This document shows, one piece after another, positions 8,442 to 18,413 of a DNA stretch of 32,000 bases. Location: assembly GCA_963677765.1 (NCBI GenBank), contig OY782392.1:660001-692000 (forward strand), written 5' to 3'. This stretch comes from Candidatus Saccharimonadota bacterium (GTDB lineage Bacteria; Patescibacteriota; Gracilibacteria; BD1-5; UBA6164). Position 1 is the stretch's first letter. The number at the start of each line of letters is the position of its first letter. The notes below the pieces were generated by a model. The model had not been told where the DNA came from. It was given only the letters and a program-made list of their open reading frames with translations, and did not search any database. The position numbers and the translations under genes are program-made.

Positions 8442-8446
8442 TAAAA

Positions 8447-8477
8447 AAAGAAGCAAAAAAAATGCTTCTTTTTTTGT
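8447..8477 (+). terminator. Rho-independent terminator after the beta-propeller gene
   Basis: The stem aaagaagca / tgcttcttt has an A7 loop and is followed by a T-run. Confidence 0.7.
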
Positions 8478-8532: not shown

Positions 8533-9876
8533 ATGAATGATTTAATATTTTCATGAGCTTGACTTGCTATAGGTTTAGCTTGATTGTGAATTGCTATATG
8601 ACAAGGTTTTTTGTTTTATAAGGCTATGGATGTAATAGGGAAAAACCCTAGGTCTTCAGGTTTTTTTCTTACTATAACTATTTTATGAATTGCATTAGTA
8701 GAGTCAGCAGGTATTTATGGTTTAATAATAGCTTTTCAAATACTTAGTGCTTCTTTTATTGATCCATTAACAGCTATATGAGTAGGTTCTGCAATATGAT
8801 TGGCATGATTATGAGTTGGTATATGAGAATGAATTCTTGTATGATCAGCTATAGAAGCTATGAATAGAGATACAGAAAATAGGAATAGAATTCTTACATA
8901 TATGATATTGTTTTTAGCATTAGTAGAGTCAGCTGCTATATATGGGTTAATAATAGCTTTTCAATTGTTAACAAAATTAGAACTATCTCCTTATTTGGCT
9001 ATTTGAGCATGATTATCAATTTGACTTACTTGATTATGAGTTGGTATATGAGAGTGAATATTGTCTTGAAAATCTATTTCACTTATGTCACAAAAGCCTA
9101 ATCAAAAATGATATCTTCTTACATCAACTATATTATGAATTGCCTTAGTTGAAACTGCTGCAATATATTGACTTATAATGTCTTTTTCGATTATTGAATC
9201 AGATTTAATTATTCCTATGTCGGCAATATGAGCTGGGTTGGCTGTTTGACTTGCATGATTATGAGTTTGAATAGGTGAGTGATTATTAGTTTCATGAAGT
9301 TATGAATCAATGTTAACTCATAGGGCTAATAAATCTAAGGTTCTTACATATATGATATTATTTTTAGCTTTAGTAGAATCAGCCGCAATATATGGTTTAA
9401 TCATAGGTTTGCAAATTTTATCTAATTGATCAGTAGAATGATTAGCTTCAATTTGAGCATGATTAGCAATTTGATTAGCATGATTATGAGTAGGTATTTG
9501 AGAATGATTTATGTCTTCTAAATCTATTAAAGTAATTTCTAAAAGACCATCTCTTTCAATGTTTTTTCTTACAATAACTATTCTAGCTATTGCATTAGTA
9601 GAATCAGCAGCTATATATTGACTTATAATATCAATGCAAATTTTGTCTACTAATGAAATTTTATGATTTGCTGCTGTTTGAGCATGATTAGCAATTTGAT
9701 TAGCATGATTATGAGCTTGAGTAGGTGAGTGATTTTTGACATGAGCTTCTTTTGATTCTATTGCTAGAAATCCTAAGGTTAAACAAAGAGTTTTAACATA
9801 TATGATATTATGAGTTGCATTAGTAGAATCAGCTGCAATATATGGTTTAATTATAGCATTTACAATATTGTCTTAG
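8533..9876 (+). CDS. atpE: F-type ATP synthase subunit c as a six-hairpin covalent fusion (447 aa, predicted 12 TM helices), paralog 1
   Basis: Hand translation with TGA=Gly gives one ORF with no TAA or TAG. It contains six tandem copies of G-rich helix 1 (GAGLAIGLAGLGVGIGEG), a polar loop, and helix 2 (LALVESAAIYGLIIAF). The Glu codons at 8701, 8926, 9151, 9376, 9601 and 9826 are exactly 225 nt apart. The gene is invisible in the standard code because TGA is dense. Confidence 0.9.
8533..9876 (+). repeat. Intragenic tandem repeat, 6 units of 225 bp (sub-structured as 3 x 450 bp)
   Basis: The block gcattagtaga(a/g)tcagc(a/t)gc(t/a)atatatgg(t/g)tta and its close variants recur with an exact 225-nt period. 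Odd and even units differ systematically. Confidence 0.9.
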
Positions 9877-9982
9877 CTTATTAAAAAAAGTAAAAAAAAT
9901 AAATTTGATTTTTTTTATTTTAAAAATATTATAGACATAAAAAGCTTTATTTTCTTTTCTTAAGAAATAGCTTATTATAGAG

Positions 9983-10026
9983 AAAAAAGCAAGGTAAAAA
10001 AATATTTTTTTACTTGCTTTTTTTTT
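9983..10026 (+). terminator. Terminator-like hairpin with a T9 tail between the first c6 gene and atpB
   Basis: The stem gcaaggtaaaaaaa / tttttttacttgc (one bulged G) is followed by nine Ts. It lies in a 209-bp intergenic gap, whereas other atp genes are 19-64 bp apart. Confidence 0.55.
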
Positions 10027-10085
10027 GTGTTTCAATATACTTCTCGCGTTTTATTTAATTATGTATAATTTTTTAATACAATAAT

Positions 10086-10952
10086 ATGGACACATTAAAT
10101 ACTTTTTTGTCTGCATATGTTATCTCATGATGAGATGGGCATTCCGCATGACTAAATCCTTATTTTATATGAGTTCTAATTGAGCTTGTACTATTTGGGT
10201 TAATATACTTTTTTATAACAAAAAGGCCTAACTCGTCTTTTTCTGTTATGTTTGACATGTTATATGATAAGGTTTATTCATTTTTTGAAGATATTCTTTG
10301 AACAGAAGAAAAAAGATGGACAAAACTATATATTACATCTATGTTTTTTGTAATATTAATATCAAACTTATTAGGTGTTATTTTAGAAATAGCTTGAGTA
10401 TGATTACCATTTTTACATCATGCAGTATCTATACCTACATCTGATATAAACTTTAATGTTGCTATGGCAATAGTATGAGTTTTAATTGTAATTTATGAAC
10501 AATTTAAATTCTTATGATTTTGAAAAGCTATATACGAATACTTGCCAGTTCTTGGTAAAAATTATATACCTTATGAAAAATGAAATTTAAATAAGTTTAT
10601 AGATTTTCCTTTATTCTTATTGGTTAAAGTTTTTGATATTATAATATCAATATTTTTATGATTATTAGAAATAGTAGGTCATTGAGCTAAAATTATTTCG
10701 TTATCATTTAGGTTATTTGGTAATATTACCTCAGGTTGAATGCTTCTTGCTATGTTATTGGCATGAGTAGAATTGCTTACTTGATCTATATCAGGTTTTG
10801 TAACTGGATTGTTTGGTAATTCTATAGAAGTTAACTTCCCAGTATTAATACCTATAATATTACATTTACAATGATTACTAGTAGCTTTAATACAAGCTTT
10901 AGTTTTTCCACTTTTGATAGCTATATTTATTAAGGTTGCAAAAGTGCACTAA
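10086..10952 (+). CDS. atpB: F-type ATP synthase subunit a (288 aa)
   Basis: It contains the essential-Arg motif ISLSFRLFGNITSGG and a C-terminal helix, LHLQGLLVALIQALVFPLLIAIFI. It is a multi-TM protein, and the start/stop frame is consistent. Confidence 0.93.
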
Positions 10953-10990
10953 TTTTTTAAATTTATAAGATATTTTTTAATAATATATAT

Positions 10991-12340
10991 ATGGAAAATT
11001 TGGTTAATTTTATATGAGCTTGACTTGCAATTTGATTAGCTTGAATCTGAGTTGCAATTGGTCAATGAATATTATGAAAAGCTTCAGTTGAAGCTATGTG
11101 AAAAAATAAAGATTTATCTTCTTTTTTCTTAACAATTACAATTCTTGGTATAGCATTAGTAGAATCGGCAGCTATATATGGTTTGATAGTAGCTTTTAAA
11201 ATATTATCTACTACTGATATAACAATTTGAGCTTCAATTTGAGCATGATTAGCTATCTGATTAGCATGATTATGAGCATGAGTATGAGAATGAAAACTTA
11301 TAGCTTGAGCTATAAATGCTATGAGTAAAAATCCAAAATTAAAATCAAAAATAATGACATTTATGGTTTTATTCGTTGCATTAGTAGAATCAGCAGCTAT
11401 ATATGGTTTAGTTATCTCATTTAAAATATTAGGAGATCCTACATTTTCTTCTGAAGCATTTATCGGTATGTGATTAGCTGTATGATTAGCATGATTATGA
11501 GTTTCTATTTGAGAATGAATACTTGCTAATAAAGCTATGGATGTTATGGGTAAACAAGAAAAAATGATTTGATTTTTCTTAACTGTAACAATTCTTGGTA
11601 TAGCATTAGTAGAATCAGCTGCAATATATGGTTTAGTAGTTGCATTTGATATTTTCTCTAAAGATTTATGATTAATGGCTGCTATCTGAGCAGGTACTGC
11701 AATTTGATTTGCATGATTATGAGCATGAATTTGAGAATGAATACTTGTTTCTGGTGCTATGTCATCAATGTCTAGAAATCCAAAAATTAAAGCTAAATTA
11801 ATGACTTTTATGGTATTGTTTATAGCTTTAGTTGAGGTTACAGCAATATATGGTTTAATTATTGCATTTAGAATTTCAGGTTCTTATGATCCATCTATTG
11901 ATCAATTAGTTTATGTATGAGCATGATTAGCTATCTGATTAGCATGATTATGAGTTGGTATCTGAAGATGATATTTATCAGAAGAATCAATGAAAATAAT
12001 GTGAAAAAACCCTTCTATAATTGGTTTTATGTTAACAGTTTCTATATTAGGGGTTGCATTAGTAGAATCAGCTGCAATATATGCATTAGTTGTTTCATTT
12101 AAAATATTAGGTACTGAATGATTAATCTGATTAGCTTCTGCTTGAGCATGATTAGCTATTTGATTAGCATGATTATGAGCATGAGTATGAGAAGGTTTAT
12201 TAATAAAGGGTGCTGTTAAAGGTATAAATATAAATCCAGAACAAAAAGGTAAAACTTTAGCATTTATGGTATTATTTGTTGCTTTAGTTGAAGTAGTCGC
12301 TATTTACTGATTACTAATAGCATTTAGAATAATTGGTTAA
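10991..12340 (+). CDS. atpE: F-type ATP synthase subunit c as a six-hairpin covalent fusion (449 aa), paralog 2
   Basis: I translated every codon by hand with TGA=Gly and found no TAA or TAG. There are six c hairpins with Glu codons at 11162, 11387, 11612, 11834, 12065 and 12290 (spacing 225, 225, 222, 231, 225 nt). By hand count there are roughly 50 in-frame TGA codons against about 24 GGN. Confidence 0.92.
10991..12340 (+). repeat. Intragenic tandem repeat, 6 units of ~225 bp
   Basis: It has the same periodic c-hairpin unit as 8533-9876. The motif gcattagtagaatcagc...atatatggttta recurs. Confidence 0.9.
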
Positions 12341-12369: not shown

Positions 12370-12843
12370 ATGGAAAATTTAAAATTAGAATTGATTATTG
12401 CTGCTATGATCAATTTCTGAATATTGTTTTTTATGTTTAAGCATTTCTTAGGTGAAAAATTAGCAAAAGCTATTGAAGATAGAAGAAAGTTTCTTCAAGC
12501 TTCTGCTGAAGCCGAAGAACAAGCTAAACAAAAACTAGAAGAAGCAGAAAAACAAGTAGAAGAAATATTAAATGAAGCTAGAGCAAAAGCTTCTGATATT
12601 GAAAAATCTGCAGATGAATTATCTAAACAAAATACTGCTAAAGCTTTAGAAAAAGCAGAAAAAGAAGCTGAATATATAATTTCAAGTGCTAGAAGTCAAA
12701 TAGATAAAGAAAAATTAGAAATGGAAAATTCTATGAGATCAAAAATTTTGGATTTATCTTTAAGATTAACTTCTAAAATATTCTCTAAAGAAACTGCTAA
12801 TAAAGACTTTTTAGAAAAAGAATTAAATGTATTAACTAAATAA
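12370..12843 (+). CDS. atpF: F-type ATP synthase subunit b (157 aa)
   Basis: An N-terminal TM helix (LELIIAAMINFGILFFMF) is followed by a long charged coiled coil (RRKFLQASAEAEEQAKQKLEEAEKQ...). The gene sits in the canonical position between c and delta. Confidence 0.88.
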
Positions 12844-12850
12844 TTATTAT

Positions 12851-13210
12851 ATGAGTGATATAAAAAACTCTATTAATAATCTTGATTTAAATCAATTAAA
12901 ACAACTTTTATCTGAATTAAAATTGTACAAAGATTTAAACAAGCAATTATGAAATAGATGAAAAGATTTGTATAATAGATTAAAAACTTGAGAAAGAACT
13001 TATTTAGTTGAATATTTTCCAGTTATTTCAGAAGATTTAGCTTATGAAATATCTTCTAAAGTTTATAAACAAGTTTTTAATTCAGAGATACAAAGAGATA
13101 ATATAAAGTTTTTACCTAAAGATACTATTTTAGGTTGAGTAAAAGTTTATGTTGATGACAAAGTTGTTGACTTAAGCTACCAAAAAATCGAAAAAATGAT
13201 TACAAAATAA
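12851..13210 (+). CDS. atpH: F-type ATP synthase subunit delta (OSCP), unusually short at 119 aa
   Basis: It lies between atpF and atpA. The C-terminal KDTILGGVKVYVDDKVVDLSYQKIEKM resembles the OSCP C-terminal GG-x-V-x-VGD-x-V-x-D-x-S motif. The N-terminal part is much shorter than the usual ~180-aa delta. Confidence 0.6.
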
Positions 13211-13253: not shown

Positions 13254-14759
13254 ATGTCAAACGACTTATTAAATAATATTATAAATGAAATAGAAAACAA
13301 AATAGATTCTGTTGAAGTTAATCCAGAAGTATGAAATGTTGGGGAAGTTTTCTATTTATGAGATGGTGTTGCTAAAGTTTCTGGTTTATGAAACTTATCT
13401 TACAATGAAGTAGTTGATTTTGAATCAGGAGCTAGAGGTTTAGCTTTAAATCTTGAAGAACACTTTGTATGAGTTGTTATCCTTTCTGGTTTTAGTAAAA
13501 TTAAAGAAGGTGAAAAAGCTTTCTCTACAGGTAAAACTTTAGAGGTGCCAGTAGGTCAAGGTTTAGTTGGTAGGGTTGTTGACCCATTAGGTAATCCAAT
13601 TGATGGTTTATGAGAAATCAAAGCTACTGAATATTACCCAGTTGAAAGAGTTGCTACAGGTGTTATGTCAAGAAAATCTGTACATGAACCAATGTCTACA
13701 GGTATCAAAGCTATTGATGCATTAGTACCAATTGGTAGAGGGCAAAGAGAATTAATTATTGGTGATAGACAAACTGGTAAAACTCAAGTTGCTATAGATG
13801 CAATATTAAATCAAAAAGGACAATGAGTTACTTGTGTATATGTAGCTATTGGTCAAAAAGAAGGTAAAATTGCTAGAATAGTTGAAGAATTAAAGAAAAG
13901 AGGAGCAATGGATTATACTATTGTTGTTGCTGCTGGAGCATCTACTCCTGCTGCAATGCAATATTTAGCTCCATATGCTGGTTGTGCTATGGCTGAATAT
14001 TTTATGTTCAATAGTGCTCACTCATTAATTATATATGATGATTTAACTAAACAAGCTAATGCTTATAGAGAAATGTCATTATTATTAAGAAGACCACCAG
14101 GTAGAGAAGCTTATCCATGAGATGTTTTTTACGTTCACTCAAGATTATTAGAAAGAGCTTCAAAATTAAATGATGAATTAGGTGCTGGTTCAATGACAGC
14201 ATTACCTATTATTGAAACTCAAGCAGGTGATGTTTCTGCTTATATACCTACGAATGTAATTTCTATTACTGATGGGCAAATTTTCTTAGAATCAAACTTA
14301 TTTAATGCAGGTCAAAAACCAGCAATTAATGTATGATTATCAGTATCGAGAGTTTGAGGTGCTGCTCAAATTAAAGGTATGAAAAAAGTATCAGGTACTT
14401 TAAAATTAGACTTAGCTCAATATAGAGAATTAGCTGCATTTTCACAATTCGCTTCTGATTTAGATGCTGATACAAAAGCACAATTAGACAGATGAGCAAG
14501 AATGATGGAATTATTAAAACAAGGTGTTTATTCTCCAGTTACTGTTGAAAAACAAATTTGTTCTATATATGCAGGTGCTAAAGGTTATTTAGATCAAATT
14601 GAAACTTCTAAAGTTACTAAATTTGAATTAGATTTATATACTTCTTTAGAAGATGAAAAATCTATTTTAGAATCTATTTCAAAAGAAAAAGTATTAAACG
14701 ACGAATCAGAAGCTAAACTTAAAACAGTTATCGAAAAAGTTGTAGAAATATATAAATAA
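13254..14759 (+). CDS. atpA: F-type ATP synthase subunit alpha (501 aa)
   Basis: P-loop [31 protein letters not shown], and [32 protein letters not shown]. The gene joins track ORFs 13908..14120 and 14502..14759 in a single frame. Confidence 0.98.
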
Positions 14760-14786: not shown

Positions 14787-15701
14787 ATGGCAAATGCTAA
14801 AGAAATAAAAAGAAAAATTGGGTCGATAAAAAATACTTGAAAAATTACTAAGGCTATGGAGCTTATTTCAACTGTAAAGATGAAAAAAGCTCAAAACTTA
14901 GCAATGGAAAAAAGAAACTTTGTTTTAGAAATGTTAAAAATATTTCTAAGAGTAGAAGATTACTTATCTGAGTTTCCATTGTTTTGAGAAAATTCAAATT
15001 GAACAAAAACATTGGCTGTTGTTGTTACTTCTAATAAATGATTATGTTGAGGTTATAACGTTAATGTTATGAAAAAAGTTAATTCATATATAAAAGAAAC
15101 AGGAGAAGATTTAGATTTTGTTTCTATATGAAAAAAAGCTTCAAATTTTGTTGCAAAAACTTGAAATAATCTTATAGCTGACTTTAGTGATGATTTCACA
15201 GATAATTTAGATCCAGTTTTTACAAAAAAAATATCTGAGTTATTAAGAGAAGAGTTTCTTACTTGAAAATATAATAAAGTAGTTGTTTTTTATAATTTTT
15301 ATGTAAATACAATTAAACAAATTCCAGTTGCGAAAACTTCTTTTCCAATAGATTCAGATGATATTAAAAAATATTTATTTTCTGTTTTAGAAGATCATTT
15401 TGATATTGAATCAGAAATTAAGGAAATGGAAAATACATATTCGTATGATATTGAGCCATCACCTGAAGAATTAGTTAATGATGTTATGCCAATTATTTTG
15501 GATATGATGTTCTTTGATACTTTACTTAATGCTAAAGCTTCTGAACATAGTGCAAGAATGATTGCTATGAAAAATGCAAAAGACTCAGCTAATAAAATAG
15601 CTTGAGCTTTAACTCTAAAATATAACAAAGCAAGACAAGCTAGTATTACTAGTGAAGTTTCTGAAATTACAGCATGAGTTGAATCAATGAAGGATGCTTA
15701 A
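14787..15701 (+). CDS. atpG: F-type ATP synthase subunit gamma (304 aa)
   Basis: The N-terminus is [36 protein letters not shown]. The C-terminus is [44 protein letters not shown]. The full hand translation has no TAA or TAG. Confidence 0.95.
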
Positions 15702-15764: not shown

Positions 15765-16133
15765 ATGAAATTATTATTTATTGTTCTAAGAGTTCTTATA
15801 AACTTAATTCTAGCATCTTTTTATGTTTTGATATCAATAATTTTTTGAAACTTTATATATTGATTAATTTTATCTATTTTAGGTAAACAAGTTCCAGGAC
15901 CACAAGACCCTATTCATTTTAAATTAGCAATTTTAGCTATATTCTTATCTCTTATATTTTCTTTACTTTTTAGAAAGTATTTGTATTTAAGTGTTATTTC
16001 TTTATTTAGAGATTTTGTTTTAAAAATTGAAAAAAAAGAAAAAAAAATAAATTCTAATAATGAAGGAACTATTAATAAAGATTCATCTTTAGAAGATGAA
16101 TTAGAAATATATGTAAACAAAGAAATAAAATAA
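15765..16133 (+). CDS. Small membrane protein of unknown function, embedded in the atp operon (122 aa)
   Basis: Uninterrupted ORF under table 25. It has 2-3 hydrophobic helices (LLFIVLRVLINLILASFYVLISIIF, FKLAILAIFLSLIFSLLF) and then a Lys/Glu-rich tail. I recognised no family. An AtpI-like assembly role is speculation. Confidence 0.55.
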
Positions 16134-16135
16134 TT

Positions 16136-16537
16136 ATGATATTAAATGTATATACTGACTGATGATCTAGATGAAATCCATGAAAGGCTTGATTATGAGT
16201 TTATATCACGGATAGCAAATGATTGGAAGTTGAAAAAAGGTATAAAAGTTTATGAATCAAGACAAATAATGAAGCAGAATATTTATGAGCTTATTATTGA
16301 ATAAAAAGAGCAATAGAGCTATGATGAAATGAAATTAATCTTTTTATGGATTCAAAATTAGTAATAGAACAATTATTATGAAATTGGAAAATTAAAAAAG
16401 ATGAACTTAGAGTAATAAATAATGATATTAATCAACTTGTTAAACAAAACAATACAAAAGTAAACTATACTTGGATTGCAAGAGAAAAAAATAAAGAAGC
16501 CGATAGGCTTAGTAATGTTGCAATGGATTTAGATTAA
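16136..16537 (+). CDS. rnhA: RNase H type 1 domain protein (133 aa)
   Basis: MILNVYTDGGSRGNPGKAGLGVYI...NNEAEYLGAYYGIKRAIELG...FMDSKLVIEQL...KEADRLSNVAMD carries the DEDD catalytic pattern of RNase HI. It starts 2 nt after the preceding stop. Confidence 0.85.
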
Positions 16538-16561: not shown

Positions 16562-17962
<1,401 letters not shown>

Positions 17963-17981: not shown

Positions 17982-18413
17982 ATGAAACTAAAAATATTTT
18001 CTTTTTCATGAGAAAGCTTTAGTTCTGACAATGTTGTTTCTGCAACTTTGATGACTTCAATTTGAGAAATTACTCTATTAGATAATCATGCTCCTTTATT
18101 AACAAGTATAAAACCATCTACTATGTATGTTATATATACTGATGATAAATGAGTTGAAAAAAGAGATGATTTCGCAATTTGAAAATGAGTTGTTGAAGTT
18201 AGTGCTAACAATGTAAAAGTTATGGCTGATATGCTTGTAGATATCGATGATCTTGATACTGAAGCTGCAGAAAGAGCTAGAGAACAAGCTGTTAAACTTA
18301 TGGAAAAATATAGAGATTCAAAAGATAAAATGGACATGGAAAAATTTGTTGAAGCTGAGGATATGTTATTAAAATCAATAGCTCAATTAAAATTAAATGA
18401 TACATTAAAATAA
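17982..18413 (+). CDS. atpC: F-type ATP synthase subunit epsilon (143 aa)
   Basis: It follows atpD. An N-terminal beta-sandwich region (GEITLLDNHAPLLTSIKP) is followed by a C-terminal helical hairpin (EAAERAREQAVKLMEKY). It is in frame with track ORF 18222..18413. Confidence 0.9.

Follow-up and report, generated by a model that had tools for sequence, protein, structure and literature searches.

Fused six-hairpin c subunits with non-uniform ion-site residues in a Gracilibacteria F-type ATP synthase

In the c-rings of Ilyobacter tartaricus and Fusobacterium nucleatum, Na+ is held by five ligands, namely residue 32, Glu65, Ser66, the carbonyl of residue 63 and a water molecule that is itself fixed by Thr67 and the carbonyl of Ala64 (residues are numbered as in I. 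tartaricus c throughout). Each I. tartaricus site forms between two subunits, Gln32 and Glu65 coming from subunit A and Val63, Ser66 and Tyr70 from subunit B. In the duplicated K subunit of Enterococcus hirae (NtpK), helix 2 carries the equivalents of Ser66, Thr67 and Tyr70 (T64, Q65 and Y68) and helices 3 and 4 carry the Gln and Glu, from which it follows that residues 66, 67 and 70 are donated by the preceding hairpin. Here, we describe two genes for subunit c of an F-type ATP synthase, c6A and c6B, at positions 8533-12340 of a 32-kb stretch of bacterial DNA (contig OY782392.1, positions 660,001 to 692,000; “the window” denotes this whole stretch). Each gene encodes six hairpins fused into one polypeptide, and the residues at the ion sites differ between hairpins.

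The coupling ion of a ring has been predicted from the same few residues. According to Mulkidjanian et al., position 67 is polar (S, T, Q or R) in every predicted Na+ c subunit and aliphatic in every predicted H+ c subunit, and c subunits lacking any one ligand were classed as H+. Dibrova et al. found that losing one ligand correlates with lost Na+ specificity, named the motif ESTxxY and raised the idea that a Glu at position 32 supplies two ligands, replacing the missing Thr. This idea was later tested on the N-type ring of Burkholderia pseudomallei (E30/E61/T62/M63/Y66), which was H+ selective by NCD-4 labelling. The Mueller laboratory uses Q....E[S/T] as a minimal Na+ motif, and a review gives the principle that fewer polar groups near the carboxylate make for stronger H+ selectivity. 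Genome analyses of relatives (a complete Gracilibacterium and Vampirococcus) find no electron transport chain, and published analyses leave open what role an ATP synthase plays in these bacteria without a respiratory chain. The coupling ion decides whether a proton or a sodium gradient is built for transport.

Two six-hairpin c subunits read with genetic code 25

When TGA is taken as a sense codon, the region resolves into two open reading frames (ORFs) that are about 450 codons long and contain 51 in-frame TGA apiece. The two genes and the codons discussed below are:

8533..9876, + strand: c6A, F-type ATP synthase subunit c of six fused hairpins, 447 aa (code-25 ORF, Pfam)
8602..8604, + strand: Gln codon CAA, equivalent of Q32 in hairpin A1 (alignment)
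10991..12340, + strand: c6B, second six-hairpin subunit c, 449 aa (code-25 ORF, Pfam)
11834..11842, + strand: Glu-Val-Thr of hairpin B4, without Ser66, partner of the B5 Arg site (alignment, covariation)
11966..11968, + strand: Arg codon AGA, equivalent of Q32 in hairpin B5 (alignment, covariation)
12290..12298, + strand: Glu-Val-Val of the last hairpin, B6 (alignment, covariation)

The table-11 ORF listing has no long frame in 8533-12340, and by it the region looks non-coding. The organism uses genetic code 25, in which TGA is Gly and not Trp. Two invariant glycines of the beta-subunit P-loop (Walker-A motif GGAGVGKT) are encoded by TGA, within the twelve hairpins, 76 of 100 TGA codons fall on glycine positions of I. 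tartaricus c, and the eight atp genes contain 159 in-frame TGA against 117 GGN codons, with a single TGG. Because TGA is Gly, table-11 ORF calls are meaningless for the window, whose G+C content is about 25%. An ARAGORN scan of the window returned no tRNA and hence no tRNA-Gly(UCA) that could serve as evidence, so the code was tested through the P-loop and the glycine columns instead. Long minus-strand ORFs overlapping the c genes were discounted as by-products of biased codon content. In the databases, many entries for the fused-c family (P0002, P0004, P0006 and many others) have been translated with code 4; these entries and the published Vampirococcus alignment (PMC8080830, supplementary Fig. 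6) show Trp in place of Gly, which hides the GxGxGxG motifs.

Both translations contain six PF00137 (ATP-synt_C) domains (E = 3.5e-83 for c6A and 2.4e-84 for c6B). They are made of helical hairpins with a Gly-rich helix 1 (GxGxGxG), match the family profile and are encoded alongside subunits a, b, delta, alpha, gamma, beta and epsilon, all of which identifies them as F-type subunit c. The NCBIfam models make no distinction between Na+ and H+ c subunits, and all their equivalog cut-offs lie above the scores of single hairpins. A MAFFT alignment with the c subunits of I. tartaricus (1YCE) and F. nucleatum (3ZK1) is gapless from GxGxGxG through helix 2, which places the hairpin residues at the site-forming positions Q/E32, E65, S66 and Y70. 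In the order 32/65-66-67/70, the hairpins read:

c6A, A1 to A6: Q/ESA/Y, E/ESA/Y, E/ETA/Y, E/ESA/Y, E/ESA/Y, E/ESA/Y
c6B, B1 to B6: Q/ESA/Y, E/ESA/Y, E/ESA/Y, E/EVT/Y, R/ESA/Y, E/EVV/Y

The essential Glu65 and Tyr70 are present in all twelve hairpins, and position 66 is Ser or Thr in ten and Val in B4 and B6. The helix-2 strings are ESAGIYGL, ESAAIYGL, ETAAIYGL and three times ESAAIYGL in c6A, and three times ESAAIYGL followed by EVTAIYGL, ESAAIYAL and EVVAIYGL in c6B. A preliminary description of the locus, made from the sequence alone, had recognized E-(S/T)-A in helix 2 of ten hairpins, and we recover all ten; eight agree exactly with the string it gave, while A1 and B5 deviate by one residue outside the site. 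The alignment likewise upholds its equation of the E-S/T...Y spacing with E65, S66 and Y70 of I. tartaricus, and the first of the outcomes that it named as fatal to its proposal, namely Q/E and S/T residues lying off the site-forming positions, did not arise. At position 32, it correctly reported Gln for the opening hairpin of both genes (A1 and B1) and Glu in nine others; the twelfth hairpin, B5, which it passed over, has Arg, leaving Gln or Glu in 11/12. Position 67, to which it paid no attention, is Ala in ten hairpins, Val in one and Thr in one, and the sole Thr belongs to B4, which lacks Ser66.

Measured against the known motifs, the minimal Q....E[S/T] is literal in A1 and B1 and occurs with Glu for Gln in eight more hairpins, and in 9/12 hairpins position 32 holds a second Glu that faces Glu65. 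The complete I. tartaricus-type Na+ site is matched at 32, 66 and 70 and lacks the polar residue at 67; similarly, the penta-coordination set of F. nucleatum (Ser66, Thr67 and Tyr70) is broken by Ala in place of Thr67.

Given that the region looks non-coding under table 11, one might suppose that these motifs arose by accident, through mistranslation or by the copying of repeats, but this explanation is so improbable that we regard it as refuted. The code is demonstrated, the Pfam E-values are in the order of 1e-83, and Glu65 is present in 574/574 scored hairpins of the homologous family. Within the window, the site Glu and Tyr are invariant among twelve hairpins that are mutually only 43-67% identical, so that the shared motif reflects conservation and not recent copying or chance. 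Hairpin similarity alternates between odd and even positions, a pattern that points to an old two-hairpin unit.

Ion sites formed between neighbouring hairpins

We analysed covariation among the site positions in 107 homologous proteins comprising 575 hairpins, with Gly restored in the code-4 entries; the resulting counts are not phylogenetically independent. Internal Glu32 is always preceded by a hairpin with Ser or Thr at 66 (360/360), and Arg32 always by a hairpin with Val66-Thr67 (60/60). Gln32 stands in the first hairpin of 97 of the 107 proteins, and E-V-[V/L/I] in the last hairpin of 83. Mutual information peaks when position 32 of hairpin i is compared with 66/67 of hairpin i-1 (0.84 bits), as against 0.32 and 0.61 bits in the other two registers. 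This pairing rule, which has no exception, shows how the predicted sites are composed: each takes residues 32 and 65 from hairpin i and residues 66, 67 and 70 from hairpin i-1, in agreement with the geometry known from I. tartaricus and E. hirae.

By residue identity, the predicted sites fall into three classes: Glu32/Glu65 with Ser66/Ala67 (class I), Gln32/Glu65 with Val66/Val67 (class II) and Arg32/Glu65 with Val66/Thr67 (class III). In a hypothetical ring of one c6A and one c6B, nine sites are of class I, A6 to B1 forms a site of Gln with Ser/Ala, B6 to A1 a site of class II and B4 to B5 a site of class III. Class II would be a hydrophobic junction site between polypeptides, at which the Val/Val of B6 meets the Gln32 of the next chain. 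The Glu of class III is probably neutralised from within by the Arg, and the site with Arg32 of B5 may be self-neutralised and non-transporting. We know of no described c-ring with an Arg at the ion site beside the essential Glu.

It is conceivable, although we rate the full picture as quite improbable, that the Gracilibacteria rotor consists of one or two giant polypeptides with chemically different sites at fixed places, comprising Glu/Glu/Ser sites for Na+ or H+, a proton-only Gln/Val/Val joint and an ion-free Arg-Glu pair. If true, the ion-to-ATP ratio would be fixed by the genes, would lie below the hairpin number and would possibly involve two ion species, and it would shift between close relatives by gain or loss of two-hairpin units. 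An F-type ring that is fused, heterogeneous and endowed with an Arg site seems not to have been described before. In the literature, we found no open paper that joins the c-ring with Patescibacteria or the candidate phyla radiation or that describes these fusions, and nothing beyond Moreira et al. on fused c subunits or the sodium motive force in Gracilibacteria, Absconditabacteria and Patescibacteria. With ring size and site order fixed by the genes, the fused-c family offers a natural system for ATP-synthase research, and the Arg in the ion site, strictly paired with its Val-Thr neighbour, could serve to study non-uniform ring rotation and the evolution of the ion/ATP ratio.

The atp operon and its variants in the clade

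The genes c6A and c6B flank atpB in an operon of the order c-a-c-b-delta-alpha-gamma-(tm)-(rnh)-beta-epsilon. Its other features are:

9980..10026, + strand: stem-loop between c6A and atpB, terminator-like and with a trailing U-run (minimum free energy -17.6 kcal/mol, z = -4.5 versus shuffles)
10086..10952, + strand: atpB, Fo subunit a, with the arginine motif LSLSFRLFGNI conserved (ORF, domain match)
12370..12843, + strand: atpF, Fo subunit b (ORF, domain match)
12851..13210, + strand: short delta/OSCP-like subunit, 119 aa (weak Pfam match)
13254..14759, + strand: atpA, F1 alpha (ORF)
14787..15701, + strand: atpG, F1 gamma (ORF)
15765..16133, + strand: small membrane ORF matching no family, conserved in position across most of the Gracilibacteria atp operons examined
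16136..16537, + strand: RNase H gene, inserted between gamma and beta (domain match)
16562..17962, + strand: atpD, F1 beta, P-loop Gly encoded by TGA (ORF)
17982..18413, + strand: atpC, F1 epsilon (ORF, domain match)

Given the stem-loop at 9980-10026, c6A may be transcribed or attenuated apart from the remaining operon. A further terminator-like hairpin, A/T-rich and palindromic, lies at 8443-8475 between an upstream beta-propeller gene and c6A and suggests that the operon begins at c6A; a promoter scan returned no excess of sites over shuffled sequence. The small membrane ORF at 15765-16133 may encode a lineage-specific subunit or an assembly factor. Of the Pfam OSCP model, the 119-aa delta/OSCP protein covers just the C-terminal part, with a score under the curated threshold. 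When the PDB was searched with subunit a, the sole matches were to chloroplast a, and these do not indicate the coupling ion. A homologue of c6A that is 98% identical is encoded on a JGI metagenome contig, and the best homologues are annotated as Candidatus Gracilibacteria, one of them being Vampirococcus lugosii.

Hairpin numbers vary widely in the clade, as seen in a scan of species-representative genomes in which 70 loci were read with code 25. SR1/Absconditabacteria and metagenome-assembled genomes labelled Peribacteria have two-hairpin c subunits and Gracilibacteria have 4, 6, 8, 10, 12 or 13 hairpins per gene, which gives a clade range of 2 to 13. The usual gene order is a-c-b, and the sub-lineage of the window carries a further c gene upstream of a, giving the combinations 6+6, 6+4, 4+4, 12+6, 13+6 and 12+2. 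Close relatives differ in hairpin number (L002 12406-13365; L006-L010, L012, L013, L016, L024), and the hairpin count is 6+4 in a relative with a 96% identical beta subunit, compared with 6+6 in the window. Because the gene combinations vary among relatives, the composition of the ring is not readable from the genes alone. If both genes feed one ring, the operon totals of 18 and 19 (12+6 and 13+6) would exceed any known c-ring. Record titles of relatives with the same motif point to sea ice, the open ocean, the human mouth and other sources, suggesting that the motif is a lineage trait and not an adaptation to salinity.

In some relatives, two consecutive Fo modules (a-c-b-a-c-b) precede one set of F1 genes:

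L033, 856-4886: two Fo modules
L043, 636-5368: two Fo modules
L060, 4357-9318: two Fo modules
L072, 4084-8125: two Fo modules
L035, 6525-10381: two Fo modules

Four of these loci combine a module whose two-hairpin c is of the E/ES type with one whose single-hairpin c is hydrophobic (V or I at 32, E-A-V or E-F-V), and L035 has a two-hairpin c in both modules. Some relatives with the mixed arrangement read a-c2-b-a-c1-b, c2 being the E/ES type.

The homologue search also returned multi-hairpin proteolipids outside the fused-c family (P0098, P0107-P0113, P0114-P0115, P0116-P0120). One such family has seven to eight hairpins, all I/E-A-T/Y, another has six to nine hairpins with Q/E-T-Q/Y, the full Na+ set of the E. 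hirae type, and a four-hairpin Desulfatitalea protein has Gln instead of the carboxylate in two hairpins.

Coupling ion and comparison with known rotors

We consider H+ the most likely coupling ion, with about an even chance of being right, because Thr67 is missing from the F. nucleatum-like site and the ring would include chloroplast-like and Arg sites. A ring with such unlike sites would more simply run on H+, which any carboxylate can carry. In the mechanism we propose, the two genes would supply the rotor ring of an F-type ATP synthase from pre-assembled six-hairpin blocks, hairpin i contributing residue 32 and Glu65 to each site and hairpin i-1 the residue-63 backbone carbonyl and residues 66, 67 and 70. 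The majority site of Glu32, Glu65, Ser/Thr66 and Tyr70, with Ala67, would be a two-carboxylate site; we infer that Glu32 probably keeps its proton permanently and forms a hydrogen bond with Glu65, while Ser66 and Tyr70 lock the carboxylate. In an organism without a respiratory chain, the enzyme would probably act mainly as an ATP-driven pump.

The preliminary description had likened the sites to the two-carboxylate ring of F. nucleatum. The likeness holds for the second Glu of nine hairpins and fails at Thr67, and Glu32 has little diagnostic value. The mycobacterial ring has been counted as one of two known rings with two carboxylates, a type that includes both Na+ and H+ binders, and its sequence has Asp at the equivalent of position 32 together with E65-A-A; given these examples, a second carboxylate at 32 is not diagnostic of Na+. 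Nor is position 67 held polar by selection in the clade, as seen from the variety of its residues: Ser or Thr occurs there in 7.5% of hairpins with Ser or Thr at 66, and Val, Ile, Leu, Cys and Gly also occur. Single-hairpin c subunits at loci L063-L073, from genomes labelled Mollicutes or Bacilli and one Candidatus Avigastranaerophilus, show the pattern Q/E-[S/T]-A/Y, so that the incomplete motif of Ser/Thr66 with Ala67 is not restricted to the code-25 clade.

Several considerations weigh against H+ coupling, a reading based on sequence comparison. Four of the five site positions match proven Na+ rings, and Glu32 might give a second ligand, as hypothesized by Dibrova et al. Ala67 is smaller than the Met of B. 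pseudomallei and might leave space for a coordinating water. All c-rings are held to be intrinsically H+ selective, with physiological coupling following the Na+/H+ ratio of the habitat. Finally, the occurrence of E/ES-type c subunits beside a hydrophobic V/E-A-V/Y c1 module suggests that the E/ES type is functionally distinct.

An Na+-coupled enzyme, as the preliminary description had proposed, would bind Na+ through Glu32, Glu65, Ser66, the residue-63 carbonyl and a water molecule (or the second oxygen of Glu32) and would pump Na+ or use an Na+ gradient. We doubt this on balance, while keeping it as a serious possibility mainly because some relatives pair the E/ES-type module with a separate, hydrophobic H+-type Fo module. 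The gapless alignment with the F. nucleatum and I. tartaricus sites at 32, 65, 66 and 70 speaks for it, as do the presence of the minimal motif, the strict coupling of Glu32 with Ser66 in all internal sites, by which the polar pair is under selection, and the proposal that Glu32 completes the coordination shell. Its homology argument thus stands for four of five positions; at the fifth, position 67, which the literature regards as decisive and which had gone unchecked, ten of twelve hairpins have Ala. No hairpin of the window combines Ser66 with a polar residue at 67, a combination that is rare in the clade, and the B. pseudomallei ring with the same pattern turned out H+ selective, against the prediction from its sequence. 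The Gln/Val/Val site (at least one in an A+B ring) and the Arg site cannot be Na+ sites, the identical motif in relatives from varied sources argues for a lineage trait, and the 32-kb window contains no genes for Rnf, Nqr, Na+-translocating decarboxylases or antiporters. Moreira et al. (PMC8080830), who asked the same question for the Vampirococcus enzyme, concluded that it uses H+, on the basis of one hairpin.

Unlikely, in our estimate, is a mixed or promiscuous rotor, in which the Glu/Glu/Ser sites would carry Na+ or H+ according to conditions, the Gln/Val/Val junction site H+ only and the neutralised Arg32-Glu65 site no ion at all; a full turn would then move two kinds of ion, in a total below the hairpin number. 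The three site classes are kept at fixed positions across the family, Na+ enzymes also move H+ in the absence of Na+, ion specificity is thought not to be set by subunit a, and the c1 of Acetobacterium woodii and Clostridium aceticum offers a precedent for fused c subunits with a silent site. Such a rotor is, however, deduced wholly from residue identities, the ring could be A+B, A2 or B2, and the Arg might instead block assembly into a rotating ring or be structural. Across these readings, the analysis shows that sequence alone is insufficient to call the enzyme Na+-coupled, and that the one earlier published assessment (Vampirococcus, PMC8080830) used a single unrepresentative and mistranslated hairpin.

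Compared with known rotors, the H+ reading finds its closest tested precedent in the N-type c17 ring of B. pseudomallei, which shares the second Glu (E30), E61, Thr62 (position 66), a non-polar Met63 (position 67) and Tyr66 (position 70) and is H+ selective by experiment despite an Na+ prediction from sequence. It differs from the window in having Met in place of the smaller Ala at 67 and single-hairpin subunits. An N-type ATPase as such (atpDCQRBEFAG, second copy) was rejected on account of the wrong gene order and the absence of atpQ and atpR. The Na+-binding two-carboxylate c11 ring of F. nucleatum (3ZK1) has Glu32, Glu65, Ser66 and Tyr70 in the same register and in the same G-x-G-x-G-E-G context, but its water-holding Thr67 is Ala in the window, and the ring formed from six-hairpin fusions would be non-uniform. 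The canonical Na+ c11 ring of I. tartaricus and Propionigenium modestum (1YCE) shares Gln32, Glu65, Ser66 and Tyr70 with A1 and B1; these two hairpins lack Thr67, and the Gln32 of A1 would pair with Val66/Val67 of B6. Chloroplast and cyanobacterial H+ c-rings (3V3C, 2W5J) are among the best sequence matches, and the chloroplast H+ site, Q/E-A-L/Y, has the same make-up as the B6-to-A1 junction (Gln32/Glu65/Tyr70 with aliphatic 66 and 67), whereas the Glu32 and Ser66 of the majority sites are absent there.

Fusion itself is known for the c1 of A. woodii and that of C. aceticum (two hairpins each), V-type c/K subunits (two) and the K subunit of Methanopyrus kandleri (13). A. woodii c1 is the best PDB match to the window c subunits, yet in both A. 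woodii c1 and V-type c one hairpin no longer has its carboxylate (Gln in hairpin 2 of A. woodii c1), whereas 12/12 hairpins of the window keep the Glu; a rotor of the A. woodii F/V-hybrid type was rejected on this ground. Every hairpin of M. kandleri K keeps its carboxylate, as in the window, but that protein is archaeal, A-type and equipped with the full Na+ set, in contrast to the bacterial F-type c subunits and their incomplete set described here. The c subunit with an earlier published assessment, that of Vampirococcus lugosii (Moreira et al. 2021), belongs to the same protein family (P0003) and has ten hairpins, mostly E-S-A or E-S-V; in the published alignment (PMC8080830), only one hairpin appears, of the minority E-V-T type and printed with W at positions that the code assigns to Gly, and the fusion goes unmentioned.

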